A stretch of 64,000 nt of DNA from an uncultured virus (IMG/VR IMGVR_UViG_3300028835_002692) (IMGVR_UViG_3300028835_002692), one strand, 5' to 3'. Counted from the first letter of the stretch, positions 1 to 52,901 are shown. The notes: generated from the sequence alone by a model not told the origin. Made by a program: numbers and translations.

Positions 1-252
1 AAAGCGGACACGGCGAATGATTTGCTTACCTGGATTAGAGAGAACGACCTCGCTAATGGAAGCAAGGCTTTTGAGCGAGTAATTAAACCATTCGCAGCAG
101 AGAAGAAGCTCCCCCTTTTTCAGGTTTGGCAAGCGTGGGGTCTGTTGAAGGAGGCTAAGCGGAAAAAGCCATTAGCAGGGCCCATTTGGGAAATCGTGAG
201 TTTTGTCCCCATAGAACTTGACCAAGCTGGAGACCTGATACCGTGCGTCTAA
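1..252 (+). CDS. hypothetical protein, 5'-partial (cassette-like)
   Basis: Frame is open from base 1; the stop TAA lies in a GCGTCTAA left half-site (245-252). Confidence 0.6.
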   Translation, partial: KADTANDLLTWIRENDLANGSKAFERVIKPFAAEKKLPLFQVWQAWGLLKEAKRKKPLAGPIWEIVSFVPIELDQAGDLIPCV

Positions 253-269
253 AGAGGGGGCTTGTTTTG

Positions 270-497
270 ATGAAGTGTAACTGTAAAAAGAAGGGATTTG
301 CCCATTGGTGGAGGTATCTACGGGCCCGTCTGTGGTGGAGGTCATTTTGGGCAAGGTTAGATTATCAACCAGCTACTATTGATGGCCAGCAGGTGTGGCT
401 AAGGCATGGCTGGCCATATATGCGTATTTACAACCAGTATCCTGGGCCAAGCATGAGCCGTGACGAGTACGAACATTGGTTTGCTAAATGCGTGTAA
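270..497 (+). CDS. small hypothetical protein (cassette)
   Basis: ATG at 270 after AGAGGGGG; stop TAA inside the left arm of the 490-511 site. Confidence 0.6.
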   Translation: MKCNCKKKGFAHWWRYLRARLWWRSFWARLDYQPATIDGQQVWLRHGWPYMRIYNQYPGPSMSRDEYEHWFAKCV

Positions 498-511
498 TGG
501 GTATTATACGC
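490..511. repeat. 22-bp palindromic site (dif/lox-like) GCGTGTAA-TGGGTA-TTATACGC
   Basis: Read directly; followed by TAAGGAGG RBS. Confidence 0.9.
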
Positions 512-525
512 TAAGGAGGTAAAAA

Positions 526-891
526 TTGGGTAACCATGAAGTCGGACGAGCCATGGGACGCATGGCCACACTTGCACTCAAGATGAGGACAAATCAATCT
601 GCCTTGTCACTCTTAGATGAAATCTGTGAACCATATCGTGGTGCTGATGCAGAATTTGAGGCTGAAGACCCCAATAACCCCGGACAGACACACCCGGAGT
701 ACTGTCGATATACCGACCCCAAAGGCCCGCTAGGCATTCTCATCCGAGAGGCTTTTAACCCGACGGTAGATTGGATTGCCTTACAGCTTAAAGCTGAGGA
801 AACTGGTGATGGCGACAAGATAGATGAGTTCTATGAAAGTTGGGGTGAAGGTCCAGGAAAACAATTTGATTCTCGTTATGAATTTTGCTGA
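526..891 (+). CDS. hypothetical acidic protein (cassette)
   Basis: 121-aa ORF, TTG start after AAGGAGG. Confidence 0.7.
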   Translation: MGNHEVGRAMGRMATLALKMRTNQSALSLLDEICEPYRGADAEFEAEDPNNPGQTHPEYCRYTDPKGPLGILIREAFNPTVDWIALQLKAEETGDGDKIDEFYESWGEGPGKQFDSRYEFC

Positions 892-895
892 GAGT

Positions 896-910
896 GCGTA
901 TATTACACGT
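896..910. repeat. collapsed (spacer-less) copy of the palindromic site GCGTATA-TTACACGT
   Basis: Both arms present, central bases deleted; lies between a stop codon and an RBS. Confidence 0.7.
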
Positions 911-923
911 AAGGAGGGACTAC

Positions 924-1106
924 ATGGCTAAGAAATATGAAGCGAGGTTGTGCCCACACTGTAATCAGAAATGTTTAGGCGAGAATGAGAGGAAAGATGG
1001 GAAGCTTATCTGGCATTGTTGGACTTGTGGGGCAGAGGTAGAGGTCGAACCGCCTTTATATCGCCGGGAGAAAAGGCGAATCACCAAACTAACCGAAGGC
1101 GTGTAA
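924..1106 (+). CDS. small zinc-ribbon protein (cassette)
   Basis: CPHC...CWTC; ATG after AAGGAGG; stop in the site's left arm. Confidence 0.7.
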   Translation: MAKKYEARLCPHCNQKCLGENERKDGKLIWHCWTCGAEVEVEPPLYRREKRRITKLTEGV

Positions 1107-1120
1107 GAGCCGTTATACGC
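1099..1120. repeat. 22-bp palindromic site GCGTGTAA-GAGCCG-TTATACGC
   Basis: Read directly. Confidence 0.9.
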
Positions 1121-1153
1121 CAACGTAGTCTAATAACGTAGAAGGAGGCCTAG

Positions 1154-1771
1154 ATGAGAGTAGTAGGAATTGATTTGACGGGGTCTCAGGAAAGGCATAG
1201 CGGTGTGGCCTGCTTGGATGATGACGGCCGTGTGCAGACGGTAAGATTGAAGTCAGACCTAGACATCGAGGATTTTGTGGGGGTCATGGCTCCGGACCTG
1301 GTGTCAATCGACTCTCCCCTTTCCCTCCCGGAGGACCCGAAGAAGATCTACCGTGACTGTGAGCTCGAGCTAAAGAGGCGAGGGATCGGTGTATATTGGT
1401 GTCTCCTGCCATCTATGAAGGGACTCACCATGCGTGGGATCTCCCTCGCCAATAGGCTGCGGGACAAGGACATTTCGGTCATCGAGAGCTACCCAGGGGC
1501 GGCCCAAGATATTCTGAACATACCGAGGAAGAGCAAGGGAACCGCTATGCTGGCTGCCGGACTGGCAAATTATGGGATCACGGGAAACCTGGATGTGACC
1601 CATGACGAGCTGGATGCCGTCACCTCGGCCATAGTAGGGATTCTCTATCTCAAGGGAGACTACGAGGCGCTGGGCTGCCTCATATTGCCTAAAAAGCCAG
1701 GCGCGGCAACAATCCCGACGGCCCGACAACAAACAAAACGAGATTTAGGTACTTTCGGAGAAAGCGTATAA
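1154..1771 (+). CDS. DUF429-like predicted nuclease (RNase H-like fold)
   Basis: VVGIDL, SIDSPLSLP, RxCE, IESYP and HDELDAVTSA motifs. Confidence 0.8.
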   Translation: MRVVGIDLTGSQERHSGVACLDDDGRVQTVRLKSDLDIEDFVGVMAPDLVSIDSPLSLPEDPKKIYRDCELELKRRGIGVYWCLLPSMKGLTMRGISLANRLRDKDISVIESYPGAAQDILNIPRKSKGTAMLAAGLANYGITGNLDVTHDELDAVTSAIVGILYLKGDYEALGCLILPKKPGAATIPTARQQTKRDLGTFGESV

Positions 1772-1778
1772 GGGACGC
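1764..1778. repeat. degenerate site: intact left arm GCGTATAA, truncated right arm ACGC
   Basis: GCGTATAAGGGACGCAG; contains the stop codon of the DUF429-like gene. Confidence 0.7.
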
Positions 1779-1800
1779 AGAAAAGGAGGAGGGTAAAATA

Positions 1801-2133
1801 ATGAGCCTACATTCTATTTATGTCGATGATGAGGTGTTTGCGGAGCTCCAGAAAAGGGCTACTGCTCTGAAAGACACGCCGAATCGCGTGCTGAGGAGGG
1901 TTCTCTTACCAGGAGAAATGAACCAGGAAATCTTGACCATTCTACACAAGAAGGGACCTATGACGGCACTAGCAGTTTTTGGCCAAGTCCCTTATCAACT
2001 TAAGAGTGTCTATACAAAGCTCCTGGAACTGGAAAAGGTTGGGCTGGTGAGTAGGGATGAAAACGGGGTATGGAAGGCAGAGCCACGGGGCAGGGTAGAG
2101 CCGATAGGTATCCTTGATAAGAATATGTGCTAG
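1801..2133 (+). CDS. DNA-binding protein: N-terminal ribbon-helix-helix-like plus C-terminal winged helix (cassette)
   Basis: IYVDDEVFAELQKRA..DTPNRVLRR; the wHTH is paralogous to the N-terminus of 8459-9784. Confidence 0.65.
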   Translation: MSLHSIYVDDEVFAELQKRATALKDTPNRVLRRVLLPGEMNQEILTILHKKGPMTALAVFGQVPYQLKSVYTKLLELEKVGLVSRDENGVWKAEPRGRVEPIGILDKNMC

Positions 2134-2134
2134 A

Positions 2135-2156
2135 GCGTATAAGAGAGGTTATACGC
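2135..2156. repeat. 22-bp palindromic site GCGTATAA-GAGAGG-TTATACGC
   Basis: Perfect arms. Confidence 0.95.
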
Positions 2157-2170
2157 AGAAAGGAGGGGAA

Positions 2171-2365
2171 ATGAAAGAGCGAGTTGAGGGATGGTTAGCT
2201 ATGTTTGGCCTTGGTGTGTGCATCAGCTGGGTTGGGGCGTTGATAGCGTGGGTCTGTCCTAGCTTGAGTACAATCTCTCCTTTAGAATTCGGTCTTTATT
2301 TTTCAGGTATGTCTTTTGCCGGCTGTGGACTTGGCTGGCTAGTAGATGGAAGGAGTGACTGCTAG
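2171..2365 (+). CDS. small two-TM membrane protein (cassette)
   Basis: ATG after AGGAGG; two hydrophobic stretches; stop abuts the next site. Confidence 0.65.
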   Translation: MKERVEGWLAMFGLGVCISWVGALIAWVCPSLSTISPLEFGLYFSGMSFAGCGLGWLVDGRSDC

Positions 2366-2387
2366 GCGTATAAGGCGCATTATACGC
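2366..2387. repeat. 22-bp palindromic site GCGTATAA-GGCGCA-TTATACGC
   Basis: Perfect arms. Confidence 0.95.
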
Positions 2388-2400
2388 AAAGGAGGTTACA

Positions 2401-2589
2401 TTGAACGAATTACAAGAAGCTATCGGGAATACTCTCATGGCGTTCGGTCAAACAATTTTGGATAATGGCTTACCAAAAGACCCCTTCATTATCCAAGGTG
2501 AGCCGGGCAAGGAATACGGGTTCTTTGTGGCTGTCTGGCCTAACACCGGAGAAAGAGCTGAAGATGTACTCCATCTGAAGAAGCGGTAG
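2401..2589 (+). CDS. small hypothetical protein (cassette)
   Basis: TTG after AAGGAGG; stop abuts the next site. Confidence 0.65.
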   Translation: MNELQEAIGNTLMAFGQTILDNGLPKDPFIIQGEPGKEYGFFVAVWPNTGERAEDVLHLKKR

Positions 2590-2611
2590 ACGTATAACTC
2601 CTATTACACGC
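2590..2611. repeat. 22-bp palindromic site ACGTATAA-CTCCTA-TTACACGC
   Basis: Two mismatches to consensus. Confidence 0.85.
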
Positions 2612-2625
2612 AGAAAGAAGAGAAC

Positions 2626-2913
2626 GTGAGAGATTTACAGAGTCTAATAAAGGGGGCCAGGAAACAGGATGAAGAACTCCGTGAGCTCTTTGAGGAATTG
2701 AAGGAGAAGCAGGACACCGTGCACGTTCTTATTCTCGATCACCTGAGGATGCTTGCCGCTTTACTCGATGCCAATACGAGAGCTAACGCGATCTTATTTA
2801 ATGCAGCTGTGAGTCATGCTGAGAGAGACTTGCGGTTGGAGCTTGACCGGCTATATCGTGGCCAGAGGAGTATGGTTGAGAAGATCCTGGAGTTCCCAGC
2901 TAGGCCATTTTAA
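2626..2913 (+). CDS. small coiled-coil protein (last gene of the array)
   Basis: 95-aa helical ORF followed by a terminator. Confidence 0.6.
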   Translation: MRDLQSLIKGARKQDEELRELFEELKEKQDTVHVLILDHLRMLAALLDANTRANAILFNAAVSHAERDLRLELDRLYRGQRSMVEKILEFPARPF

Positions 2914-2920
2914 CTATGCC

Positions 2921-2946
2921 AAGGGGTGAAATCACCCTTTTTTTTT
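2921..2946 (+). terminator. rho-independent terminator
   Basis: GGGTGA-AA-TCACCC hairpin followed by a T9 tract. Confidence 0.75.
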
Positions 2947-2956
2947 GCCTCAGGGC

Positions 2957-2986
2957 TTGACAAACCTGTTTAGAGTGTTGTAATAT
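2957..2986 (+). promoter_or_regulatory. sigma70-type promoter
   Basis: TTGACA-18-TAATAT upstream of the surface-protein genes. Confidence 0.55.
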
Positions 2987-3167
2987 TACCGAACTAAAGT
3001 GAAAAGACCTGCGTCAACAGGCCTTTTCGCTAATACAGGAGGCACTGGTGGGAAGACCACTACCTTTTGTTATCCTAGCACATTTTCCAACTAATTGCAA
3101 GGGAGGTGATGCCTATGGGGAATAATTCCCCAAATCCCGTCCAAGAATAAGAAAAGGAGGATTCAAA

Positions 3168-5402
3168 TTGAGAAGGAAAATTGGTAGTATCTTGTTTGCC
3201 CTGATACTGTTGGTGAGCTTCGGCCTGGTGACAGCGGCGCCGGCCACAGCGGAGGGCACACTACAGGTTATCCCGTTCGGTCTCACCACCGGCGCATACC
3301 TCGATGGCCTTGATGAAGACTCTGTAGCCGGTTGGTCTACGCAGGTGGACGAGATAGCGGTTCTCTTGGACTCTGGCCCGATGGAACCGAATGAACCCCC
3401 AGCATGGGAGGGGCAGACTACAGATGGTGACGAAGCAAGAATCGTCATTCCTGCATCTAGCGTCGGTGTGACTGACCTGAATAGCTTGCTCTCGATTGCT
3501 TGGTCACGATACTCGGTCAGGGGTTATGCTCCACACGTCGATGTAATAGTTGAAGTCGGCGAGGGAACTGATGCCTTAGTGTTCGAGTACGCCTATAATG
3601 GGCACGAGGCTGATGTCCAAGCCACAGGCTATGGGACTGTCTACGACAACTGGTTTCCGACGTTTGACGACGACGGTGAGGGCCCCGCGGTTCTCGATGG
3701 CTCGGCAAGTGCCTGGCTGAATTCCGGACCAGCTGGCGGACCTGAAATCATAAAGGGAACGCTGGCTGACTGGAAAGCGGGAACGGTTGATGGTTCCGTA
3801 ACAGGGGATTCGGTAGTTCTGCGGTTCGAGATTGAGGTCGATAACTGGATTCTGGCCTCTGGGTCCTACATAGACGATATCACCATAAATGGTGTTGTCT
3901 ACTACGGCTCGATCCAGGATGCCGTTGATTCTGCCACCGGCACCATCATCAATGTAGCCCCTGGGACGTACGTTGAGAACGTCGTCATTGACAAGAGCCT
4001 GACGCTTCAGGGTGCCGGCAAAGAACTTGCCACGATCACAGGAGCAGTCACGATAATGGCAAGCGACACTCTCGTAGATGGCTTCAGAGTTGAAGGCACT
4101 GTTTACGTAAACGACTCCCTATCGGCTATAACCGGCGCAACAATCTCCAACAACTACATCACCGGAGATTCCTATGGAGTCAGGGTCGGGTATGCGTCAG
4201 AGTGTACCATTTCGCTGCTTACCATTGAGGACAACGACATCATAGGCAATACCAACAAGGGAATCTGTTTCTGGAAGGTAGACTGGGAGGCAGGTAACCT
4301 ACATGATGTCACCATTAGAGGCAACACGATAAACGATAACGGTAGCACAGGCATCTCGACCTATGGTGCGGGGCCCTACTTTATCACTGGTAACACCGTA
4401 ATCGGAAATGCCGGCAACGGCATTAGCATAAAGTACGATGATGGTGATGTCATAACGGGCAACATCGTGACAGGCAACGATGCCATGGGTATCAACATGC
4501 ACCAAGTGACCAACTGTGTTGTCGAAGGTAATACCGTATCTGGTCAGATGAGCGAAGAGGTTGTTACTACCTTCTGGGGCGAACCTGTTACCGCTGGCAA
4601 AGGCTCGGGCATCTACGTTCATGAGGCCAGTGTAGGCAATACCGTGACTCTCAACGCTATTAGTGGCAACCAGTACGGTATCCTTGTTAACAGTGAAAGT
4701 GGTGATATGCCGTCAGGTAATTCCATCAACCAGAACAGCATCACTGGAAATAGCCTCTATGGTGTTCTGAGTGTTCTAGAGTCTCCACCTGCTCCGGTCG
4801 ATGCCCAGAACAACTGGTGGGGCCAGTCAAGTGGTCCTGGTGACGGCGTAATGGGTGATGTTGACTACGAGCCGTGGTTGCTTACTTCTGACTTGGAGGG
4901 AGCCCCATATGACAAGACCCTTGCCCTGCCTGCTGGCTGGTCGATAGTTTCGCCGGATGCGGAGCTTGAGTCCTGGACAGCTGCTGACGCAGAAGAGCTG
5001 AAGTACGCTTACGACGGCGGTGGCTTTGTAACCGACTTTGCCCTCGACCCCGTTACCCCGATGTTTGTTAAAACAGCTGCCGGTGGCGGGATAGGCTTCA
5101 ACTACGCAGAAGCTTCCCAGGGCATATTCACTACTGACCTCGAGGCCGGGTGGAACCTGATTGGTATCCCGGAAACCGACGCCAACCCTGACGCTATCCT
5201 CTCTTCAATAAGGCTAGGTTCAAACAACGAGGTAGCTTTGGCAACTTTGGTCAGTCAGGGAAACTACAATCCTAGTGGACAGACTTTCTATGAATCTATG
5301 CTTGATCTCGAGGATTTCCCTGAAATCGGGCTCTATCCGTTCGACGGATACTGGGCGAACCTGAACGTTGCCAAGGAGTACGGCGTAATCGTCGTAAAGT
5401 AA
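3168..5402 (+). CDS. secreted surface/S-layer-like protein with parallel beta-helix (PbH1/NosD-like) repeats
   Basis: Signal peptide; SIQDAVD..GTYVENVVIDKSLTL; many GNxI repeats; NNWWG; GWNLIG. Confidence 0.8.
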   Translation: MRRKIGSILFALILLVSFGLVTAAPATAEGTLQVIPFGLTTGAYLDGLDEDSVAGWSTQVDEIAVLLDSGPMEPNEPPAWEGQTTDGDEARIVIPASSVGVTDLNSLLSIAWSRYSVRGYAPHVDVIVEVGEGTDALVFEYAYNGHEADVQATGYGTVYDNWFPTFDDDGEGPAVLDGSASAWLNSGPAGGPEIIKGTLADWKAGTVDGSVTGDSVVLRFEIEVDNWILASGSYIDDITINGVVYYGSIQDAVDSATGTIINVAPGTYVENVVIDKSLTLQGAGKELATITGAVTIMASDTLVDGFRVEGTVYVNDSLSAITGATISNNYITGDSYGVRVGYASECTISLLTIEDNDIIGNTNKGICFWKVDWEAGNLHDVTIRGNTINDNGSTGISTYGAGPYFITGNTVIGNAGNGISIKYDDGDVITGNIVTGNDAMGINMHQVTNCVVEGNTVSGQMSEEVVTTFWGEPVTAGKGSGIYVHEASVGNTVTLNAISGNQYGILVNSESGDMPSGNSINQNSITGNSLYGVLSVLESPPAPVDAQNNWWGQSSGPGDGVMGDVDYEPWLLTSDLEGAPYDKTLALPAGWSIVSPDAELESWTAADAEELKYAYDGGGFVTDFALDPVTPMFVKTAAGGGIGFNYAEASQGIFTTDLEAGWNLIGIPETDANPDAILSSIRLGSNNEVALATLVSQGNYNPSGQTFYESMLDLEDFPEIGLYPFDGYWANLNVAKEYGVIVVK

Positions 5403-5466
5403 AGTTAGATGGAGAGGGGGATGGGGGTTGAGATATACTCCCATCCCCCAGTGAAGGGAGAAAGAC

Positions 5467-6597
5467 ATGAAAAGAATAACTGTTCCTGTACTCCTAATTC
5501 TCCTGCTGGTACTCTGTGCTGCTCCTGTCTATGCCGGGATACCAACCCTTCCGCACGCCTTCTACGGCAAGGTCTGGGTAAACGACTCCCCGGCAGCCGA
5601 TGGCACCCAGGTATCGGCAACAGTAGATGTCGGAGACATTGTGCCCGTCCAGAACCCGGTCGGCACCACCAATGGCGGGTATGGTAGCCCTTACCTTCTG
5701 GTTCAGGGAAATATCAAGAGCGGGGCCTCCATAACCTTCCATGTAACTAACGAGAACGGCACTGCCTCCTACAAGACTGGCACCTTTGAGACTGGCGGCG
5801 GGCCAACTGAGGTAGACCTGTCGGTGGTTATTGAGAAACCAGAGCCCTACATACCTCCCATCGGTGGCGGAAATGGTGCAGCTCCATCACAGCCTCCTGT
5901 AGAGACAAACCTCTTCGGCAGCGAAGGGAAGTTCAATATCAGTAGCAAAGGCATAATACAGGAGACGACAGAAGCCACCTCTGAGGATGGCAAACTAACC
6001 CTCACCATTCCCAAAGGCACCAAAGCCCTCAATAAAGACGGTGACCCACTGGAGAATCTGGGGGCAGCTATTGATGAGAGCCCGCCTGACCCGCCTGAGG
6101 ATAGCAATATTATCGGGCTGGCCTATGAGTTCGGCCCGCCCGGGGCTACCTTTGACCCGGCGATAACGCTTACCTGGGCGTATGACCCCGAGGACATACC
6201 CGAAGGGGTAAACCCGGAAGACCTGACATTAGCCTACCATGATGGCTCGAAATGGGTAGAGCTGGACTGTGTGGTTGATGCCAAGAACAATACGGTCACG
6301 GCCAAGGTAAGCCACTTTACCACCTTTGCCCTCATGTATCCTATTCCCAAGCCTGAAGCCCCAGCACCGCCGACTCCGCCTGCGCCGACTCCGCCTGCGC
6401 CACCACCGAAACCTGAACCGGTGCCGGCACCGACACCACCACCACCGGCACCGCCACCACCTGCTCCGGCTCTGCCGGAGCCACCGGCACCGCCACCGCC
6501 AGAGGCGTTCAACTGGATCTGGGTAGTGATAGCGGGAATGGTTGTGGCGCTGGTTATTGTCGTCGTCTTGTTAAAACGCCAGCGTAGGGGCTACTAG
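5467..6597 (+). CDS. surface-anchored protein with Pro-rich stalk and C-terminal TM anchor
   Basis: Signal peptide; PHAFYG; AYEFGPPGATFDPAITLT; VSHFTTF; poly-Pro; TM segment plus basic tail. Confidence 0.8.
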   Translation: MKRITVPVLLILLLVLCAAPVYAGIPTLPHAFYGKVWVNDSPAADGTQVSATVDVGDIVPVQNPVGTTNGGYGSPYLLVQGNIKSGASITFHVTNENGTASYKTGTFETGGGPTEVDLSVVIEKPEPYIPPIGGGNGAAPSQPPVETNLFGSEGKFNISSKGIIQETTEATSEDGKLTLTIPKGTKALNKDGDPLENLGAAIDESPPDPPEDSNIIGLAYEFGPPGATFDPAITLTWAYDPEDIPEGVNPEDLTLAYHDGSKWVELDCVVDAKNNTVTAKVSHFTTFALMYPIPKPEAPAPPTPPAPTPPAPPPKPEPVPAPTPPPPAPPPPAPALPEPPAPPPPEAFNWIWVVIAGMVVALVIVVVLLKRQRRGY

Positions 6598-6610
6598 GGG
6601 AAAGAACACA

Positions 6611-6704
6611 AACCCACCCGAGGGGGAGCCGGGGGAGGTGACCACGGGGCTATTGGCCCCGCCCGAAAGGGATATCCCCTGCGCCGTGATCCCTCGGGTG
6701 GGTT
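6611..6704 (+). other. predicted structured intergenic element
   Basis: 14-bp perfect outer stem AACCCACCCGAGGG/CCCTCGGGTGGGTT enclosing inner hairpins, including CCC-GAAA-GGG. Confidence 0.5.
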
Positions 6705-6705
6705 G

Positions 6706-6727
6706 GCGTATAATGCAAATTATACGC
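6706..6727. repeat. 22-bp palindromic site GCGTATAA-TGCAAA-TTATACGC
   Basis: Perfect arms; followed by RBS. Confidence 0.95.
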
Positions 6728-6747
6728 AGAGGAGGCTTAGGGAATAA

Positions 6748-6936
6748 ATGATTAAAATTATAGTAATTATCCTGTGTCTTGGTCTTGTAGGTTTTGGATT
6801 CTGCTGCGGATATGGCATTGGCCAGGAACAAGCGAGACAGGAATATGAATCTCAGATTTGGTGGTTGACAGAAAAACTTAGCTCTTTCTATAAAGAAGTT
6901 CCAGGCTTATACTATCTACTGGAGTGTCGACAATGA
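6748..6936 (+). CDS. small membrane-anchored protein (single cassette)
   Basis: AT-rich 62-aa ORF bracketed by two sites. Confidence 0.65.
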   Translation: MIKIIVIILCLGLVGFGFCCGYGIGQEQARQEYESQIWWLTEKLSSFYKEVPGLYYLLECRQ

Positions 6937-6958
6937 GCGTATAAGGGTTGTTATACGC
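6937..6958. repeat. 22-bp palindromic site GCGTATAA-GGGTTG-TTATACGC
   Basis: Perfect arms; directly after the TGA. Confidence 0.95.
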
Positions 6959-6973
6959 ATTACAGAAACCGAA

Positions 6974-6999
6974 AGGGCTGGGGTGTCGTCCCCAGCCCT
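6974..6999. terminator. hairpin between convergent genes
   Basis: AGGGCTGGGG/CCCCAGCCCT 10-bp stem. Confidence 0.6.
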
Positions 7000-7033
7000 C
7001 ACTTTGTGCCATGCTAGCTTTGTCAGCTACTGG

Positions 7034-7267
7034 CTACTCAGCCATCTTGGCTAACCAGTTCCGGCTCCACTTATCCGGATCGGGAGCGCGGTAGGTTGCC
7101 GCATCTACTCCAGACCGGTAGTTGGCCGTTCTGGTTGGGCCGAAGCCCACCGCGGCGTAGTTGGTGACCGCGCGTCCCTTGGCTGCAGCGTAGGACGTGG
7201 CCATAGCCCCCGCCTTTCGGCGGAGCTTGTCTGCACCCTTTGAGGCCATCTCAGGCATACTCGCCAT
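7034..7267 (-). CDS. small basic Ala-rich helical protein; candidate genome-coating nucleoprotein
   Basis: Strong AAGGAGG RBS; Lys/Arg/Ala-rich; function inferred. Confidence 0.6.
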   Translation of the reverse strand: MASMPEMASKGADKLRRKAGAMATSYAAAKGRAVTNYAAVGFGPTRTANYRSGVDAATYRAPDPDKWSRNWLAKMAE

Positions 7268-7354: not shown

Positions 7355-7612
7355 TCAACCAGGTTTAGGCTCGTGGCCGAAGCTACGAATCCATTTCTCA
7401 GCATCGAGAAGGTACTGTGGCAAAAACTGGTTGGTAAGCTTATCCAATGAGAGACCTGGGTTATCGTCCTCAGCGTACTTGTTAACATAGGTGGCCATGC
7501 CCTCGGCAGATCCAACAGCCCATTCCATAGCTTTGCCCACTATACCGGGCGGATATCCCTTATCCAGCAGCTCTTTCTTTCTCTTGCTGATCAGCTCTTT
7601 CCTGCTAGCCAT
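7355..7612 (-). CDS. hypothetical protein
   Basis: In the minus-strand operon. Confidence 0.65.
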   Translation of the reverse strand: MASRKELISKRKKELLDKGYPPGIVGKAMEWAVGSAEGMATYVNKYAEDDNPGLSLDKLTNQFLPQYLLDAEKWIRSFGHEPKPG

Positions 7613-7613
7613 T

Positions 7614-8447
7614 CTACCCCTTAGCCATGCGTTGAGTTGCCCGGGCGAATATGTCGTCTAGCGTTTCCCTGCCCGCTGCAGCGTGGTTGGTCAGACGGGA
7701 AATCCATTGTTTCTCGGATATCTTGCCATCGGCAAAATCCTGCGCCCATCCCTTGACCTTGTTATCACCCATCTCTTCAGCGACGGCCTGGGCGAAGGCG
7801 ATATCTTCAGGGTTCGCTTTCGTCTTGGGGGTAGTGTCTCGCTTCTTCTTAGACTTCGCCGGGGGTTTCTCTACTGGCACCGGCACCAGGACTGGCTCCT
7901 GTGCCCCTGAGACGGGCTCTACGGGCAGTTTAGACGGTTTCGGCTGCGCTATCACCTTCTGGGTCTTATTAACTCGGTCAGTAAGTTCATCTGCCCATGT
8001 AGTGATGCTCTCAAGGTCTTGTAGCGTTCCTGTGCCCTGGGCTAGTTGGAGCAGGTGCTCAGAGCCTCTCAGGTCACGCAGAGCCATACGGATGATGTCA
8101 TTGATAGTCCTGATCATAGCTGGCCCTGGGCGCCATGCCGGCTCCGCTTTGGTTACCTTGCTGAGAATTTCCCTAGCCCGCTGCACCACACCCGGGTTGT
8201 TGGCTGTGCCCTTCTGCCTGGCCTCCTCCATAGCAGCCTGCACCAGAGCGACTACTTCAAGGAATGACTGCTCGGGATTGCCAGATTCCGGCGCTGGTCC
8301 TCCGGTAAGGGCGCTATCCAAGTCCCTGATGGTGGAGTCGCCACTCCGTATGACGGTGGTAATGCCATCGACAACGGACTTGAAGGTCTCCGCACCCGTG
8401 CGGACTATATCGGCCAGGAGCTTATCCGGCCTGTCTTCAAACACCAT
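7614..8447 (-). CDS. hypothetical helical protein
   Basis: GGAGG RBS; operon context. Confidence 0.7.
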   Translation of the reverse strand: MVFEDRPDKLLADIVRTGAETFKSVVDGITTVIRSGDSTIRDLDSALTGGPAPESGNPEQSFLEVVALVQAAMEEARQKGTANNPGVVQRAREILSKVTKAEPAWRPGPAMIRTINDIIRMALRDLRGSEHLLQLAQGTGTLQDLESITTWADELTDRVNKTQKVIAQPKPSKLPVEPVSGAQEPVLVPVPVEKPPAKSKKKRDTTPKTKANPEDIAFAQAVAEEMGDNKVKGWAQDFADGKISEKQWISRLTNHAAAGRETLDDIFARATQRMAKG

Positions 8448-9784: not shown

Positions 9785-10131
9785 TGTGCTGCACCCTCCT
9801 TTTTGGCTTCTTCATCTGCCAGCTGCTTATGCAGGGTGAAGGCCAGATTATACACATAGCAGAAGAGGGAAGCGAATGTGTTGTCTCGCAGATAGCCCCG
9901 GTCGTGAAGGTAGACCTGGAACTGGGAGACCCTCACCACCTCTTCGTCAGAGAGCTTTACTGCCTTGACCTTGCTCACCTCCTCCCGCTTCATTCGGAGA
10001 GGGACAATGACCTCGTTCTCATCCAGAGAGACCAACTGCTGAATGAGCCGCGGGTCTATGTCCTCAACTCCCTGCTGGCTGATCCCTTCGCCTTGAGTTG
10101 GCTCGACCACACTTCCTCGCTCCGTTACCAT
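9781..10131 (-). CDS. hypothetical protein
   Basis: Coupled to the dxs stop and to the next gene. Confidence 0.65.
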   Translation of the reverse strand: MVTERGSVVEPTQGEGISQQGVEDIDPRLIQQLVSLDENEVIVPLRMKREEVSKVKAVKLSDEEVVRVSQFQVYLHDRGYLRDNTFASLFCYVYNLAFTLHKQLADEEAKKEGAAQ

Positions 10132-12041
10132 CAGTCACCTCCTGTGATAATTTTCAGTACCCGCTGCGCTATTCCATGCGCATCAAGGCCGAATTTTTCA
10201 AGCAGCTCGGGTATCTCACCGTGGTCAGGGAATATGTCTCCTACCGCTATCGAGAACACCCGGAGCATATCGTCCCTGGGAGTCCGCCGTCTTCCCTTAG
10301 CCTCGGATATGGCTTCCTGCAGAGCCGATGCTGCCCCGCCTACCGACGTGCCCTCCTCTATGACCCAGACCATAGAGAAGCTATCGAGCAATTCCTCGAC
10401 CAGGGCGTAATCTATGGGTTTGATGTACCTCAGGTTTACTACCTGGGGCTTCAGGCCATATCCCTCCAGCTCCTTGCCGGCATCAAGGGCAGCATAGACC
10501 GCCTCGCCGACGGCTGCCAGGCAGACCATCTCGCCATCACGCATGACTTCGGCGGTACCGTAGAGGACCGGCTTCATCTCCTCATCCAGGGGTACACCCC
10601 GAACCTCTCCTCTGGGGTACCGGATAGCCCACGCCTTGCTGGCGTGAAGCGCTGTCCAGAGCAGGTGGCGCATCTCATTCTCGTCTTTGGGCACGGCCAC
10701 AGTCATGTTGGGCGCTATTCTCATGTAAGCCAGGTCATAGAGGCCATGATGAGTTTTACCATCCTGCCCGACAACCCCCGCGCGGTCTAAAGCGAATACG
10801 ACGTGCAGCTCGTTTAAGCAGACGTCGTGCATAATCTGGTCAAACGCCCTCTGGAGGAAGGTAGAATAGATACAGACTACCGGCATCAGCCCGGCCCGGG
10901 CCATACCGGCGGCCATTGAAACGGCATGCTGCTCACATATCCCGACATCAAAAACCCTATCGGGATATACCTCCTGGACGGCAACGAGGCCCGTCCCTTC
11001 CAGCATGGCAGCACTTATGGCTACGATCCGCTGGTCCTGAGCCATTAGCTGAAGAAGGGCCTGGGAGAATACCTGAGAGTAGGTAGGGCCGGCCGCCCCT
11101 ATCTTGGCTGGCCCGGGCTGGTGGTAGCGGGTCGGGTCTTCAGCGGCCGGAGCCCAGCCCTGGCCTTTATTGGTAAGCACATGGACAAAGGGAACCTTGT
11201 CGGAGTACTGCCTTGCCCGGTCGATCATCTCGATGAGCTCCTTGAGGTTATGGCCATCAACCGGACCAAGGTAGTTAAAGCCCATCTCGTCCCAGAAATG
11301 GCCTATCTCTGGGATGAGGGTCTTTTGAATAGCGGACTTTATCCCCTTTCCCAGACTGAGAGCCAGAGGGCCCAGCGGTACCTTGGGCGCCAGAGCTTCG
11401 GTTATGCTCTCAAACTGCTGGAAGTCTTTGTCCAGCTCAAGCTCTGCCCGGAGGTGGGGCAACCACTGGCCACGCCACTTCGCCAGCCAGCCCACGTTCT
11501 GACTGATAGCCATGCCGTTATCATTCAATATGACCATCAGGTTCCGTGGGTTCTGGGCGATGATATTCGATAGCCCCTCATAAGCCAGGCCGGAGGTAAG
11601 GCTCCCATCGCCGATGACGGAGACGAAGCATCCCTTATCCCCCTTCATCCTGGCACCAAGGGCTAGCCCCAGGGCTATAGACGGAGCGCATCCGGCATGC
11701 CCAAGTGCCAGAACGTCATGCTCGGATTCCGAAGGCTCGAAGTAGCCTGAGTAGCCCTGGCTGGTCCTGATCTTCTCAAATCCCTTCGCCCTGCCGGTGA
11801 GGATTTTGTGAGCGTAGGACTGGTGGCTGACATCAAATATTATCCGATCCGTGGGAGAGTCGAATAGGCGATGCAGGGCTATGGTTAGCTCGACAACGCC
11901 GAGATTAGAGGCCATGTGTCCACCGTTACGGCTCACCGTGTCTATGATGAGCTGGCGGATCTCCCCGGCCAGGGTAGATAGTTCCTGCAGGGACAGCCGC
12001 TTCAGGTCAGCTGGGGCTTCTATCGTCTCCAGTAAGCTCAA
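10131..12041 (-). CDS. dxs: 1-deoxy-D-xylulose-5-phosphate synthase
   Basis: GGHMASNLGVVELTIALH, FDVSHQSYAHKILTGR, GDG..NDN TPP motif, YSTFLQRAFDQ, IRYPRG; probable TTG start at 12041 with AAGGAG (ORF track starts at 12113). Confidence 0.93.
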   Translation of the reverse strand: MSLLETIEAPADLKRLSLQELSTLAGEIRQLIIDTVSRNGGHMASNLGVVELTIALHRLFDSPTDRIIFDVSHQSYAHKILTGRAKGFEKIRTSQGYSGYFEPSESEHDVLALGHAGCAPSIALGLALGARMKGDKGCFVSVIGDGSLTSGLAYEGLSNIIAQNPRNLMVILNDNGMAISQNVGWLAKWRGQWLPHLRAELELDKDFQQFESITEALAPKVPLGPLALSLGKGIKSAIQKTLIPEIGHFWDEMGFNYLGPVDGHNLKELIEMIDRARQYSDKVPFVHVLTNKGQGWAPAAEDPTRYHQPGPAKIGAAGPTYSQVFSQALLQLMAQDQRIVAISAAMLEGTGLVAVQEVYPDRVFDVGICEQHAVSMAAGMARAGLMPVVCIYSTFLQRAFDQIMHDVCLNELHVVFALDRAGVVGQDGKTHHGLYDLAYMRIAPNMTVAVPKDENEMRHLLWTALHASKAWAIRYPRGEVRGVPLDEEMKPVLYGTAEVMRDGEMVCLAAVGEAVYAALDAGKELEGYGLKPQVVNLRYIKPIDYALVEELLDSFSMVWVIEEGTSVGGAASALQEAISEAKGRRRTPRDDMLRVFSIAVGDIFPDHGEIPELLEKFGLDAHGIAQRVLKIITGGD

Positions 12042-12439
12042 TGCAGACTCCTTATCGGTATTCCGCTTATCCTCCTGAGCGCTTTCCTGAACCGCTCCGA
12101 GTCTACTATCCACTGGTCACCCCGATAGCGGATAGCTCTCGCAGCGTACTTCTGGGCGAATACGTCATCGCCTCTGCCCTGCAGGGCACCCTCTACCAGG
12201 TCTAGGAAGGTGTCTTCGCTCATCTCAACCTGGCCGGTGTACTCCAGTTTCTCCCCGGTGGTATAGAACTTACCATCCCGAATGGCGTAGATCCGCGTGA
12301 CGCTGTCTTCTCCATAGACAGTCCACTTACCCACCCAGCCATCGGCCTCTTTCCAGTCCTCATCATCGGCGACCTCGGCGAGTTGGTTCATCAGGAAATC
12401 TACGAGTTTACCTATTTTAGAACTTTCTCCAGAAGCCAT
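12038..12439 (-). CDS. SCP2-like (sterol/lipid carrier fold) protein
   Basis: Size and pattern: YAIRDGK, VEMSEDTFLDLVEG, IRYRGD. Confidence 0.5.
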   Translation of the reverse strand: MASGESSKIGKLVDFLMNQLAEVADDEDWKEADGWVGKWTVYGEDSVTRIYAIRDGKFYTTGEKLEYTGQVEMSEDTFLDLVEGALQGRGDDVFAQKYAARAIRYRGDQWIVDSERFRKALRRISGIPIRSLH

Positions 12440-13215
12440 CTGGTCACGCCTCCTTTTTCTTTCTCTAAGGTAATCGGCCTTGCCCGGAGAATCATCTCCG
12501 TTACATGGAGAATTTCGCGCTGCCTCTCGGCTTGTCCAGCGAAGGGGATATGCCCCAAGAACGGTACCCTGAACCGCCTAGCGAGTTCCTGTATGTTGAC
12601 CGGGTCAAGGTCAAAGGGGTTGGAAACTTGGCCGCAGTGGGGGCAGCGGTACCCGGCCATATTCGCCACAATACCGCAGATCGGGGTCCCGGTTTCCCTG
12701 AGCATGTTCAGGGTCTTGGTTATGCCGAGAACAGAGAGGTCGTTGGGCTGGCAGACGATAACGGCGCCATAGATATTCTGGAGACTGGGCGGCATATCCC
12801 GTCCGTTCCCTATCAGAGATTGGATTTCATCACCGGAGGTCGGAGGGGTGTCGACTACAACCCAGTCAAGGTCTTCGTCCCAGGCTATAGAGGTCTGGGC
12901 TATCTGCTTGACAGCCTCCCGCTTCATCTCTCCATCCCACATATTCGGGGTGTCTTCTGGGAAGAGAAGCCCTATCGAGAAGACCTGAAAGCCATCGTGG
13001 TAGACTGGACGGAGCTTGCCTCCCAGAAGAGGATCGTAGCCTGGTTCTTTCTCAAGATGCAGAGCCCGGGGCATTGATGAGGCATGAATATCTATGTCCA
13101 GAAGCCCCACCTTTTTCCCGAGGGTTCTCAGTGCTGATGCCACCCCCAGGCAGATGGTCGTTTTACCGGTACCGCCCTTCAGGGAAAGAATGGGTAGCTT
13201 CTTAGGCTCACTCAT
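12412..13215 (-). CDS. Mrp/NBP35/ApbC-family P-loop ATPase
   Basis: KGGTGKTT, DIDIH, VDTPP, ANMAGYRCPHCG. Confidence 0.88.
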   Translation of the reverse strand: MSEPKKLPILSLKGGTGKTTICLGVASALRTLGKKVGLLDIDIHASSMPRALHLEKEPGYDPLLGGKLRPVYHDGFQVFSIGLLFPEDTPNMWDGEMKREAVKQIAQTSIAWDEDLDWVVVDTPPTSGDEIQSLIGNGRDMPPSLQNIYGAVIVCQPNDLSVLGITKTLNMLRETGTPICGIVANMAGYRCPHCGQVSNPFDLDPVNIQELARRFRVPFLGHIPFAGQAERQREILHVTEMILRARPITLEKEKGGVTRWLLEKVLK

Positions 13216-13508
13216 TGGCCACACCTCCAGCTATAATCGTACCCTCTCGGGCGCTCTGGGATGCAGTCGATGAATCCTTCTCCCTGCTTGAGCTTATGGG
13301 ATAAGCTACAGTCACAGCACTCGAGCAGGAATCCGATGTTAATATCGAAGTAAATCCGATTCTGCTCCGCCCTGTCCTTTCTTATCTCCCAGCCCAGGCT
13401 GTTACCGACCCTTTTTCTAGCCAGGGCGAGCAGGATTATAAGGGAGGTGAGTAACCTATAGAGCCAAGGTTTCAAGGCTTTACCCCCAAAAAGAAAAGAC
13501 GACCACAC
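13212..13508 (-). CDS. small membrane/Cys protein (start uncertain, probably near 13475)
   Basis: TM stretch, CCDCSLSH. Confidence 0.5.
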   Translation of the reverse strand: MWSSFLFGGKALKPWLYRLLTSLIILLALARKRVGNSLGWEIRKDRAEQNRIYFDINIGFLLECCDCSLSHKLKQGEGFIDCIPERPRGYDYSWRCGQ

Positions 13509-13541
13509 CCGAAGGTGCAGCCGCCTCTGTGTCCAGCCAGC
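13488..13541 (-). promoter_or_regulatory. leader terminator/attenuator, copy 1
   Basis: GCTGGCTGGACACAGAGGCGGCTGCACC-TTCG-GGTGTGGTCGTC-TTTTCTTTTT downstream of a minus-strand TTGACA (13588-13583); near-identical to 45297-45351. Confidence 0.7.
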
Positions 13542-13618
13542 GACCTGACTTTCCTCTACAACCTACCACAGGGGGTAAAACTTGTCAAGGGTTTAACTGG
13601 GAAATTTGGAGGGAATTT

Positions 13619-13825
13619 TTATTGTGGCGTTGTCTGCGCTCTGGACCCGAACCAGAAGCCCGATATCGCCGCGACCAGTATCAGGAACGCCGCTACAATA
13701 TCCTTGGCCATCTCTGCCGAGCCGAACTTGACTACCAGGAACACCAGGATGCCGACGAGGGCTAGCATAACCAAGAATGTACAAATAGGGCGAACCAGTC
13801 CGCGAATAGTATCGACGTAGTTCAT
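13619..13825 (-). CDS. small two-TM protein (holin-like or virion membrane protein)
   Basis: Two TM segments; ISGFWFGS; AAGGAGG RBS. Confidence 0.6.
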   Translation of the reverse strand: MNYVDTIRGLVRPICTFLVMLALVGILVFLVVKFGSAEMAKDIVAAFLILVAAISGFWFGSRAQTTPQ

Positions 13826-13846
13826 TTTCCGACCTCCTTTCGCCTA

Positions 13847-13868
13847 GCGTATAATTCCTGTTATACGC
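13847..13868. repeat. 22-bp palindromic site GCGTATAA-TTCCTG-TTATACGC
   Basis: Perfect arms; upstream of a minus-strand gene. Confidence 0.95.
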
Positions 13869-13943
13869 AAAGTTAAATTTTAATTGAAGAAATCAGCCCT
13901 CTTTGGTTAATTATATTTTACAATTCCCCACAGGATGTGTTAA

Positions 13944-35135: not shown

Positions 35136-35173
35136 TTAAAGAAACTAAGCTGCCCTGATATTGACAAAGTGGG

Positions 35174-35195
35174 GCGTATAAGTTAAATTATACGC
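35174..35195. repeat. 22-bp palindromic site GCGTATAA-GTTAAA-TTATACGC overlapping a promoter -10
   Basis: TTGACA at 35161, TAAATT 17 bp later inside the site. Confidence 0.95.
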
Positions 35196-37395: not shown

Positions 37396-37433
37396 GAAAG
37401 GGGTGGAGAGGCACCCCTATTGACATTTTGATA

Positions 37434-37455
37434 GCGTATAATTAGTATTATACGC
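37434..37455. repeat. 22-bp palindromic site GCGTATAA-TTAGTA-TTATACGC overlapping a promoter -10
   Basis: TTGACA at 37420, TAGTAT 17 bp later. Confidence 0.95.
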
Positions 37456-41019: not shown

Positions 41020-41062
41020 TGCCTCCTCCAGCAATCTGACTATAGCCCTTGACATTGTGGTG

Positions 41063-41084
41063 GCGTATAACTAATATTATACGC
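41063..41084. repeat. 22-bp palindromic site GCGTATAA-CTAATA-TTATACGC overlapping a promoter -10
   Basis: TTGACA at 41049, TAATAT 17 bp later. Confidence 0.95.
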
Positions 41085-41100: not shown

Positions 41101-41364
41101 ATGGTTACCCCTCTTGAGAGTATGACAACTAGGCTGGTTAAAGACCTTCAAGCCTTTCAGAGGCTCCGGGGTCGTCTTAACACTGAAATTATGAGAACTC
41201 ACCATAATTTACGTCCACCAAAGCTTGGTCCGCTGGAAGTGACTGATCCCCTCAGGCAAGGGCTGGTAGAGGTAGACCGTTTAATGTCTCAAGCTGAGGG
41301 GGAATTTATCAAAACCCTTCAGCAGTTTCCTGCCGTCTATCCGAAACTTGGTCGAGGCGTTTAA
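41101..41364 (+). CDS. small helical protein (site-bracketed cassette)
   Basis: Stop TAA lies in the left arm of the 41357 site. Confidence 0.65.
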   Translation: MVTPLESMTTRLVKDLQAFQRLRGRLNTEIMRTHHNLRPPKLGPLEVTDPLRQGLVEVDRLMSQAEGEFIKTLQQFPAVYPKLGRGV

Positions 41365-41378
41365 TCAATATTATACGC
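41357..41378. repeat. 22-bp palindromic site GCGTTTAA-TCAATA-TTATACGC
   Basis: One mismatch to consensus. Confidence 0.9.
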
Positions 41379-43608: not shown

Positions 43609-44042
43609 AGCTCAGAGTAGAAGGCATAGAGGAAATCTTGATAACAGACCCGAAGGGTGCCTGCAAGCTGGCGGCCCTCCCGGCATTACCTCCGGCGCTC
43701 CCGGCATTGCCTTCGCCAAGCCAAGGACAGCCGGTGCAGCCCAGCCCGGGTCAATGGGGAATCCCATGGCAACCGAGTCCCCAGTTGCCCACGCCCTTCG
43801 GCCCGTCGCCTATAGTACCTATTCCTGGGGCTGGGGATGTTGCCGTGCCTCACAAAACGGGCATCTACACCAGGCACGTGCATGACCCCAACGACCCGTT
43901 GCATCGGGCGAAGTGGGGAGTGGGCGGCCCAATGATTCAACAGGCAGCTCAGGAAGTTGACCCTGCCAAGTGGGAAAAGAACTGGCAGGCCAGTATGACC
44001 GGGGGAGAAGATAGAATCGATGGTAACCAATACACTTCCTAA
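43605..44042 (+). CDS. Pro-rich hypothetical protein
   Basis: GGAGGTG RBS. Confidence 0.6.
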   Translation: MKLRVEGIEEILITDPKGACKLAALPALPPALPALPSPSQGQPVQPSPGQWGIPWQPSPQLPTPFGPSPIVPIPGAGDVAVPHKTGIYTRHVHDPNDPLHRAKWGVGGPMIQQAAQEVDPAKWEKNWQASMTGGEDRIDGNQYTS

Positions 44043-45206: not shown

Positions 45207-45272
45207 AGCAGTTGGCAGCTCGGCAGGCCCATAACCTGCAGGTCGGGGGTTCGAATCCCCCCTCCGCTACCA
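45197..45272 (+). tRNA. tRNA-Met(CAT), initiator-like
   Basis: Full cloverleaf, C1xU72 mismatch, GGGGG-TTCGAAT-CCCCC T-arm, encoded CCA; anticodon loop CCCATAA. Confidence 0.9.
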
Positions 45273-50486: not shown

Positions 50487-50508
50487 GCGTATAATGGCTG
50501 TTATACGC
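50487..50508. repeat. 22-bp palindromic site GCGTATAA-TGGCTG-TTATACGC abutting a -35 box
   Basis: TTGACA starts at 50509. Confidence 0.95.
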
Positions 50509-50591
50509 TTGACAAGCTACGCTATAAATGGTAATATTACATTGGCAGTTTGGGGAAGCCAAGCTGACTACCAAACAAGGGGGATAGACTG

Positions 50592-52807: not shown

Positions 52808-52901
52808 GCGAAATGGCGGGATGCGTCACGTGGGCATCCCGCTATCGTGGGGGGTTGGCCTACCCCACTTGATAATGCTAGGCCGGAAAGGGGGGATAGA
52901 G

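Follow-up and report, generated by a model that had tools for sequence, protein, structure and literature searches.

Among the multi-copy motifs described for phages, the stoperators of Cluster A mycobacteriophages appear, by analogy, to be the closest working analogue of the element considered here, a 22-base palindrome that recurs in a 64,000-nucleotide stretch of DNA from an uncultured virus (IMG/VR IMGVR_UViG_3300028835_002692; the whole stretch is called the window, and positions are counted from its first letter). According to the portions of the literature on which this comparison draws, Cluster A genomes contain 20–30 stoperators, some of which are promoter operators while most are not associated with a promoter, and they are oriented with transcription (PMC6550527). 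Both the stoperators of L5 and Bxb1, which serve the immunity repressor, and the present palindrome are short motifs that recur tens of times along a temperate element (PMC6550527, PMC9283540). In both, a subset of the copies lies in promoters (here 20 of 234, as predicted), and most are intergenic and oriented with transcription. The stoperator, however, is a 13-bp asymmetric site bound by a monomer, whereas the palindrome studied here forms a 22-bp dyad around a variable centre and is locked to a stop codon and a Shine-Dalgarno (SD) sequence. It further differs in its occurrence in arrays of small genes, its recurrent spacer classes, its host phylum and a repressor that is only presumed. We propose, with a probability of about one in two, that the palindrome is a multi-copy, stoperator-like operator fused to an SD sequence, which doubles as a homology linker for modular gene shuffling. 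If this is true, one 22-bp dyad would serve as promoter operator, separator of accessory genes and shuffling homology, and uncultured, abundant mobile elements of Chloroflexota from sediments and the subsurface would use it for these three jobs. To our knowledge, almost no phages of this phylum have been characterised. The system would also offer a clean, countable example of the short linkers long proposed to drive modular phage evolution.

Two other phage systems share parts of this design. The PeSL cassettes of T4-type phages flank small non-essential open reading frames (ORFs) in hyperplastic regions, and recombination between PeSLs leads to insertion, deletion and replacement of genes (PMC2839356, PMC4122927). 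Like the palindrome, they form a shuffling joint between small ORFs at which genes are exchanged; yet each PeSL contains a strong promoter and a terminator, whereas here a promoter accompanies about 9% of the sites and a U-tract terminator none, and no mini-circles were seen here among contigs, the only material compared. The Cluster K elements consist of inverted repeats with a variable spacer (ESAS) just upstream of an SD-containing start-associated sequence (SAS); they occur in many copies per genome, nearly all in one orientation, and that account gives their function as unknown (PMC3203893). Inverted repeats, a spacer and an SD-bearing start region are thus common to both, but the ESAS arms are imperfect, 17 bp long and separated by 4–13 bp, in contrast to near-invariant 8-bp arms exactly 6 bp apart. 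The sequences are unrelated, and copies embedded in promoters are not among the ESAS features in the described portion of that source (PMC3203893).

Genes bounded by short recombinase-type sites in varied contexts are also known from the pdif modules of Acinetobacter plasmids and from integron attC cassettes (PMC6449649, PMC5790767; again as far as the portions used here describe them). Stop codons near or inside the site are a further shared trait. Unlike pdif sites, which alternate in orientation, the palindromes are co-oriented with symmetric arms, and no host dif bearing these arms was found (any site at all is present in just 14 of 151 genomes of a related order). The attC site is a folded structure of 57–141 nt, whereas the present site is a 22-bp perfect dyad that shows no linkage to its upstream gene (the same spacer in 3/44) and comes without an integron integrase.

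Anatomy and symmetry of the site

The demonstrated parts of our proposal are the anatomy of the site, its symmetry, its register in promoters, the mosaic breakpoints beside it and its distribution. The motif, GCGTRTAA-N6-TTAYACGC, is a 22-base palindrome with an 8-6-8 layout. When the window was searched with GCGTATAANNNNNNTTATACGC, allowing up to three mismatches, 13 matches were found against 0.07 expected, a number attained by none of 100 shuffled controls; in total, the 64 kb contain 13 full and three internally deleted copies. In a ranking of the 8-mers of the window, GCGTATAA with its reverse complement comes second (23 occurrences), directly after the SD word AAAGGAGG (24), and besides the palindrome the only repeated motifs found in the window were SD and proline-rich coding repeats. 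An earlier note on this DNA had described the motif from positions 245–2913 as punctuating an integron-like cassette array. All five full copies it named (490, 1099, 2135, 2366 and 2590) were recovered with 0–2 mismatches, and the degenerate copies at 245, 896 and 1764 proved to be internal deletions of the full unit. The motif is indeed present in that segment but is not confined to it, as eight further full copies lie outside 1–2913, at 6706, 6937, 13847, 35174, 37434, 41063, 41357 and 50487.

The array itself agrees well with that first description. It comprises nine short, co-oriented genes separated by the motif (Table 1), which are mutually unrelated, the lowest pairwise BLASTP E-value being 0.23. 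Stop codons fall in or near the left arm, with four array proteins ending in the arm TAA (after CV, CV, GV and SV) and the remaining stops located 0–5 nt before the arm. An SD sequence follows the right arm, although only weakly after 2590, and the genes appear to lack promoters of their own, since a promoter scan found no plus-strand sigma-70-like promoter scoring at least 9/12 within 1–2913.

A scan of metagenomes with a perfect-arm site followed within 1–5 nt by AGGAGG returned at least 124 stretches. After removal of nested duplicates, 117 loci (251 kb) from among the matches listed were combined with the window into 118 sequences (315 kb), in which 234 sites with up to two arm mismatches were collected; 173 of these are perfect, 45 have one mismatch and 16 have two. 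An SD sequence is present on one side only in 204 of the 234 sites, which were oriented accordingly; within the site itself, orientation is readable from the spacer alone because the arms are symmetric. Base composition by position, determined over 189 non-redundant sites, gives the consensus D-GCGTRTAA-B-N4-V-TTAYACGC-A, and the unit measures ~32 bp when the SD sequence is included. The SD core begins 1–5 nt past the site in 190 of the 204 oriented sites, a proximity that is partly built in by the way the primary metagenome sites were selected; the 62 oriented secondary sites have the same consensus as the primary ones. An upstream ORF of at least 25 open codons ends within the range searched, −12 to +8 of the site start, at 151 of 204 sites, and in 77 of those 151 cases the stop codon is the arm TAA. 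On the other side, the start codon is most often found 13–14 nt past the site, and the downstream ORFs are short (median 76 amino acids; at most 100 in 111 of 151 complete ones). Neighbouring sites share the same orientation in 85 of 88 cases and lie a median of 447 bp apart.

Constraint on the site is mirrored about its centre. Only one arm pair varies, formed by R at position 5 and its mirror image Y at position 18, and its sense-strand combinations (n = 204) are A-T 170, A.C 16, G.T 13, G-C 3 and other 2. Between the arms, position 9 is A and position 14 is T in 1/189 each, and positions 10 and 13 have complementary compositions; beyond the arms, position −1 is C in 1/189 and position 23 is G in 5/189. 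The latter position is A in 170/189, and it is an SD sequence rather than a U tract that follows the dyad. Arm conservation ends at 8–9 bp per arm. As the flank constraints are two-fold symmetric and selection on RNA pairing is not apparent, the site looks like a double-stranded DNA element read by a two-fold symmetric protein.

The same counts bear on the idea that the palindrome is a hairpin in polycistronic mRNA, an intercistronic processing, stabilising or translation-insulating element 5′ of the SD sequence, which we regard as very improbable. Such a hairpin would suit the position of most copies between stop codon and SD sequence and the fixed polarity of the spacer, its loop, relative to the mRNA; the 22-mers fold as RNA with a mean of −8.2 kcal/mol, and the similarly laid-out ESAS repeats of Cluster K are suspected, in the portion of that account used here, to act in translation (PMC3203893). 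RNA pairing nevertheless does not seem to be under selection, because A.C mismatches are as frequent as G.U wobbles, and the constraints flanking the arms are symmetric on the DNA rather than directional. Loop positions 9 and 14 hold pairable bases in 102 sites against 95 expected, neither avoided nor enriched. The hairpin is equally at odds with the inverted copy at 2590, with the perfect arms retained by promoter-embedded copies, which would lie outside their own transcript (see below) and with the lack of any Rfam family matching the site.

Promoter-embedded copies and the proposed operator

A TTGACA-like hexamer stands 6–9 nt upstream of 23 of the 234 sites. Three of these, with TTGAAA at 6 nt and no −10, were dropped, leaving 20 sites (~9%) with TTGACA or TTGACT 7–8 nt upstream and a −10-like hexamer at site positions 10–15. 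This hexamer is TAnnnT in 19 copies and CATAAT in one, the spacing is exactly 17 bp throughout, and the spacers of the embedded copies are AT-rich (CTACAC, TTACTA, CTATAC, TTAGTA and others). In the window, the copies at 35174, 37434 and 41063 are embedded in this manner; these predicted promoters and the one beside the site at 50487 score 10/12, as part of nine entries at 10/12 or more among the 25 found by the promoter scan. Under ordinary sigma-70 geometry, the A that immediately follows the site would be the transcription start, and the dyad would cover approximately −22 to −1, a classical repressor position. A transcript from an embedded promoter, beginning ~7 nt past the −10, would exclude the hairpin, yet the arms are conserved, which places the constraint on the DNA. 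This conservation is the strongest argument for a DNA-level role related to transcription, and parsimony extends the same role to the copies without a promoter.

In the operator model that we favour, the palindrome would be read as double-stranded DNA by a protein dimer with two-fold symmetry. A family of phage-like integrative elements of Dehalococcoidia-type Chloroflexota would encode this protein, which is most likely a regulator. The minority of embedded copies would be true operators between a consensus −35 and the transcription start; as such a copy spans this interval and holds the −10 within its spacer, a bound dimer would shut the promoter. At the promoter-less copies, between a stop codon and the next SD sequence, the bound protein might act as a transcription roadblock or silencer, comparable to the stoperators. 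The arms together with the SD sequence would also provide short homology for gene insertion, loss and replacement, as PeSL cassettes do, because they are the only sequence common to otherwise unrelated genes. What we infer in this model is that a protein binds the site, represses and acts as a roadblock, and by which mechanism recombination takes place.

Several observations weigh against it. No binding protein was identified among the candidates in the window. The only DNA-binding-like protein of the array, encoded by 1801–2133 and combining a ribbon-helix-helix with a winged helix-turn-helix, belongs to a family of just nine proteins and was not found in five site-bearing genomes, and it was rejected as the binder. 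The product of 41101–41364, conserved behind embedded promoters both here and at five loci, is predicted to form a two-helix hairpin (pLDDT 76) and not a helix-turn-helix, and was likewise rejected. No other recognisable helix-turn-helix was found in the window with Pfam up to an E-value of 0.05, including a relaxed scan of 52 small ORFs. Recurrent spacer classes with strict polarity are not predicted by a simple operator, and we know of no operator system that explains such discrete, oriented classes. A simple operator also leaves unexplained the fixed, short distance (1–3 nt) between site and SD sequence at promoter-less copies. Metagenome primary sites were selected with perfect arms and AGGAGG, so that the proximity owes something to the selection. 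Finally, the site at 6937–6958 closes an operon, standing behind its last gene and before a terminator-like hairpin in place of an SD sequence, and has no obvious roadblock role.

Sigma-70 region 4, GerE, Xre and HTH_17 proteins encoded in related loci were also considered as binders and set aside, as none has a homologue in the window. Apart from the question of binding, the protein of ~90 amino acids encoded by 41101–41364 (and in L188, L190, L223, L252 and L177) carries LPxxDP between its two long helices; it is the first gene behind several embedded sites, and its stop codon lies inside the next site.

Mosaic junctions, spacer classes and recombinases

Comparison with related sequences supports the sites as module boundaries, in that shared genes have changed neighbours and homology stops at the edge of the site. 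In locus L237, a homologue of 924–1106 is followed by another site class and another gene, the homology ending 2 nt before the arm. An intact TGGGTA-class site directly precedes the homologue of 1801–2133 in L224 and in two contigs from the source sample, whereas the window has three extra genes and the deleted site at 1764 before that gene. From 1098, the left site edge, onward, the window is matched exactly by a contig of run X2 that is unlike it before that point, and in L201 (75–84% protein identity) the site after the polyprenyl synthetase gene is kept with a different spacer and a different small gene. When contigs of four runs were compared with 1–7200, the joints 511>1788, 511>1800 and 2582>489 were found, which represent other arrangements in related strains; no joint expected from excision or circle formation in the arrangement of the window itself was found among these contigs, an absence that is uninformative because only contigs were compared. 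Gene order among relatives is therefore not fixed, and genes are gained, lost and replaced at the site edges, as the earlier note had expected of a shuffling array. The simplest account of these mosaics would be crossing-over in either arm, which swaps the flanks around a persisting centre. The arms would supply the homology, as they are the sole homology between unrelated genes, and polarity would be kept because the partner genomes are collinear.

The centres themselves are far from random. Among 194 non-redundant oriented sites, 64 distinct spacers occur, of which the ten commonest make up 55%; GCTACA (19 sites), CCTACG (18), CGGCTG (17) and GGGCTG (13) lead the list. The 19 sites of the GCTACA class stand beside 17 upstream and 16 downstream protein clusters, and recurrent 22-mers, spacer included, are in general found between unrelated genes. 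Spacer polarity is fixed, the reverse complement being seen zero times for 15 of the 16 commonest classes among oriented sites. Same-spacer counts were tallied by shared flanks at the level of protein clusters and of nucleotide clusters. Where both flanks are shared, the spacer is the same in 9/12 pairs at protein level (12/12 within one mismatch) and in 11/11 at nucleotide level. With only the downstream flank shared, these values are 9/53 and 16/63, with only the upstream flank shared 3/44 and 4/24, and with neither shared 373/8936 and 631/18047. Identical spacers occur in 2/88 adjacent pairs and in 5/153 same-contig pairs, against 5.6 expected by permutation, and neither an excess nor an avoidance of identical spacers was found within contigs.

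Spacer classes and shuffling could alternatively be explained by Xer/lox-type tyrosine-recombinase core sites, with the intervening genes as cassettes and the spacer class setting compatibility. The inverted arms, the variable 6-bp centre and the inner ends ...ATAA and TTAT... correspond to the geometry of Xer/dif core sites, and the earlier note likened the motif to the inner core of loxP and the XerC arm of dif. The discrete, strictly oriented spacer classes common to unrelated junctions, the gain, loss and replacement of genes at sites, the ORF 6748–6936 with a site at each end and the single inverted site, recognised as such at 2590 because it reads as the common TAGGAG class on the opposite strand, all fit this explanation. 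Moreover, Xer-like recombinases form the second largest protein cluster near sites, with eight members in 7/117 loci, and head an array in L218, L225 and L189, and the window encodes one (44020–44952) that scores best on the XerA, XerD and XerC models.

The behaviour of the spacers nevertheless disfavours a recombinase that depends on spacer homology. The classical tyrosine-recombinase reaction needs identical spacers, whereas the spacer usually changes here when one flank has been exchanged, and insertion of one-site circles would leave identical spacers around a cassette, which is not the pattern of adjacent pairs. Neighbouring sites show neither excess nor depletion of identical spacers, arm conservation stops short at 8–9 bp, and ~9% of the sites are locked into promoters in a single register. 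The scores of the window recombinase, too, are far below the family cut-offs (XerA 135 against 220, XerD 124 against 330 and a further Xer model 113 against 335). Its matches in five site-bearing genomes have at most 33% identity; the site contigs of G001 and G003 contain no close orthologue, and G005:C6 contains two matches of 26–28% identity. Eight recombinases among 546 ORFs near sites equal the expectation of about one integrase per phage. The palindrome is not the host dif, since just 14 of 151 genomes of the order to which G002 belongs have any site (up to one mismatch), so that a single chromosomal dif per genome bearing these arms was not found there and the host Xer/dif system would not have been borrowed. 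We consider the core-site explanation unlikely overall, and a recombinase mechanism at the sites the less likely reading of the shuffling. A reaction that exchanges one strand pair, with no need for spacer homology, is possible at these sites. Quite improbable, in our estimate, is a set of natural heterospecific lox-like sites, at which a Xer-like recombinase swaps cassettes of the same class, with spacer classes as addresses, and doubles as the repressor; if true, this would be a natural counterpart of recombinase-mediated cassette exchange with several dozen spacer classes as addresses.

For the earlier note, this means that its shuffling at sites and its 8-6-8 geometry stand, while the role given to a recombinase is the less likely reading, as spacers differ and no linked recombinase was found. 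Its integron-like interpretation is not supported. On integron-integrase models the window recombinase reaches 52 bits against a cut-off of 265 (TIGR02249) and 32 against 435 (NF011946), it lies 41 kb from the array and not adjacent to it as an integron-type integrase would, and the low same-spacer counts for shared upstream flanks leave no attC-like linkage of a site to its upstream gene. As in pdif modules, the same module is found in different contexts with breakpoints at the sites, but the spacers usually differ across the junctions. No att repeat of the tRNA-Met gene beside the recombinase gene was found in the window.

Symmetry and multi-copy spread would fit any dimeric DNA binder, and the mosaic breakpoints would fit selected linkers; the palindrome could hence have a DNA-level role without transcriptional control, either as such a linker or as the site of a structural, partition, KorB-like, replication or packaging protein. 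The concentration of sites in arrays of small accessory genes, with ~18 kb of co-oriented genes (16.6–35 kb) free of sites, points in the same direction. We hold this for distinctly unlikely: the fixed register in consensus promoters points to transcription, linkers alone would not require 16 invariant bases with symmetric flanks, and no ParB-like gene was seen in the family scans of the window.

Distribution, element family and neighbouring genes

When a genome collection with one genome per species was scanned with the bare palindrome, at least 120 stretches were retrieved. Most of the matches are single terminator-like hairpins (Paenibacillus, Clostridia, Solirubrobacteraceae, archaea) and were set aside as unrelated; among the matches listed, those from Chloroflexota/Dehalococcoidia were followed up. 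Five Chloroflexota genomes have 1–5 sites each, clustered on single contigs, against zero for a reversed control pattern. All five sites of contig G003:C48 lie in a minus-strand block with primase-polymerase/D5, HNH, pol-beta-like and excisionase-like genes, and this contig is syntenic with 12–21 kb of the window. The site-bearing metagenome loci encode integrase, MCM/AAA, DnaC-like, Lar, peptide deformylase, IspH, Xre and sigma-70 region 4 proteins, and L171 and L234 contain up to six copies within 4.8–6.5 kb. Because the loci carry integrase, DnaC-like, Xre and other such genes, we interpret the motif, from gene content, as the mark of a family of phage-like elements and not of a single array. 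A scan of IMG/VR yielded 24 single matches, none of them in the context of stop codon, site and SD sequence. The pattern of 22 specified bases is also a practical marker, having retrieved more than 120 contigs of the element family and, in this context, none in IMG/VR. A literature search with the two 8-mers found no description of the motif, judged by titles and abstract openings; the papers listed deal, by title, with eukaryotic, viral-vector and phage N15 telomere work, and none of them with Chloroflexota or a repeated intergenic element.

Some copies in genomes stand apart. The 22-mer with spacer CGTCTA is followed by the same short sequence in G004:C91, C145 and C100 and once in G005:C6:2743, and these copies may mark another repeated element, one that shares this dyad. 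A small ORF of G001:C179 is preceded, at 7573-7619, by two tandem dyads with 3 nt between them, in the neighbourhood of a GerE/LuxR-type regulator and a radical-SAM/SPASM gene; TCCATG is the spacer of the second of these dyads. The 22-mer with this spacer is present in G001, is single-copy in G002 and G033 and occurs with one arm mismatch in G112. It prompted the idea of a host dif, which was rejected on the count of genomes given above.

Table 1. Positions of palindrome copies, array genes and associated features in the window.
Feature	Position	Strand	Details
Promoter-less array of nine small co-oriented genes	1..2913	+	Each junction is a full or internally deleted palindrome plus SD
Array ORFs	1-252 (partial), 270-497, 526-891, 924-1106, 1154-1771, 1801-2133, 2171-2365, 2401-2589, 2626-2913	+	
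Degenerate copy	245..252	+	Left arm GCGTCTAA with SD-like run directly after; spacer and right arm absent; arm TAA is stop of ORF 1-252
Full site	490..511	+	1 mismatch; spacer class TGGGTA; left-arm G variant; arm TAA is stop of 270-497; SD 1 nt downstream
Collapsed copy	896..910	+	Arms abut, spacer lost; SD next
Full site	1099..1120	+	1 mismatch; spacer class GAGCCG; stop of 924-1106 inside arm; SD 21 nt downstream
Copy with 7-nt internal deletion	1764..1778	+	Left arm, GGG, final 4 nt of right arm, SD
Perfect site	2135..2156	+	0 mismatches; spacer class GAGAGG; SD 2 nt downstream
Perfect site	2366..2387	+	0 mismatches; spacer GGCGCA; SD 1 nt downstream
Inverted site	2590..2611	+	2 mismatches; reverse complement of common TAGGAG class; weak SD downstream
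Array end	2921..2986	+	Intrinsic terminator 2921-2940 plus T run; sigma-70-like promoter 2957-2986 for next gene
Small ORF with flanking sites	6706..6958	+	ORF 6748-6936 (62 amino acids, membrane-like) between perfect sites 6706-6727 and 6937-6958
Perfect site in minus-strand operon	13847..13868	-	After polyprenyl synthetase gene, before SD and small gene
Promoter-embedded site (predicted)	35161..35195	+	TTGACA, 7 nt, site 35174-35195; TAAATT at 17-bp spacer
Promoter-embedded site (predicted)	37420..37455	+	TTGACA, 8 nt, site 37434-37455; TAGTAT at 17-bp spacer
Promoter-embedded site (predicted)	41049..41084	+	TTGACA, 8 nt, site 41063-41084; TAATAT at 17-bp spacer; heads operon ending in recombinase gene
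Site at stop of ORF 41101-41364	41357..41378	+	1 mismatch; overlaps stop codon
Xer-like tyrosine recombinase, 310 amino acids	44020..44952	+	Seventh gene of operon from promoter 41049; adjoins tRNA-Met (45197-45272)
Perfect site beside promoter	50487..50537	+	Site 50487-50508 abuts -35 of consensus promoter (TTGACA, 17 nt, TAATAT; 50509-50537)

Many ORFs of the window match no family, and the Pfam and PHROG matches within the array are weak (DUF429 for 1154–1771; HVO_A0114-like winged helix-turn-helix for 1801–2133). Outside it, phage-like genes (DnaC-like loader, a virion-protein PHROG, Gp3-like factor, DUF5131) occur together with metabolic genes (DXS, polyprenyl synthetase, Mrp-type ATPase, subtilase). 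DXS and polyprenyl synthetase (window 10131–15038) and IspH/LytB and peptide deformylase (L201, L221, L241) are found repeatedly on contigs with sites; these may be metabolic genes carried by the elements, or else the motif extends to chromosomal operons. The segment 50116–50247, upstream of the 50487 site, contains two 53-nt direct repeats (74% alike, 79 nt apart), and downstream of the promoter abutting this site a MoxR/CbbQ-type AAA ATPase and a large VWA-domain protein are encoded (51322–55034). A Ku gene (PF02735) adjoins that of an ATP-dependent, LigD-like DNA ligase in 55621–57749, a non-homologous end joining pair in an element-like region. The segment 59053–60596 holds a sliding-clamp-like gene (PHROG 'DNA polymerase processivity factor', E 1.4e-14) and, immediately after it, the gene of a 174-amino-acid protein, the N-terminus of which matches the C-terminal domain of the RNA polymerase alpha subunit. 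This protein may be an element-encoded transcription factor, and a second small protein with a similar domain is encoded in the site-bearing locus L203. The window also encodes two large secreted proteins with a right-handed beta-helix (NosD-like) and several proline/alanine-rich repeat proteins (3168–5402, 45369–46907, 5467–6597 and 21767–24037), the coding repeats of the latter being the source of its main direct-repeat families.

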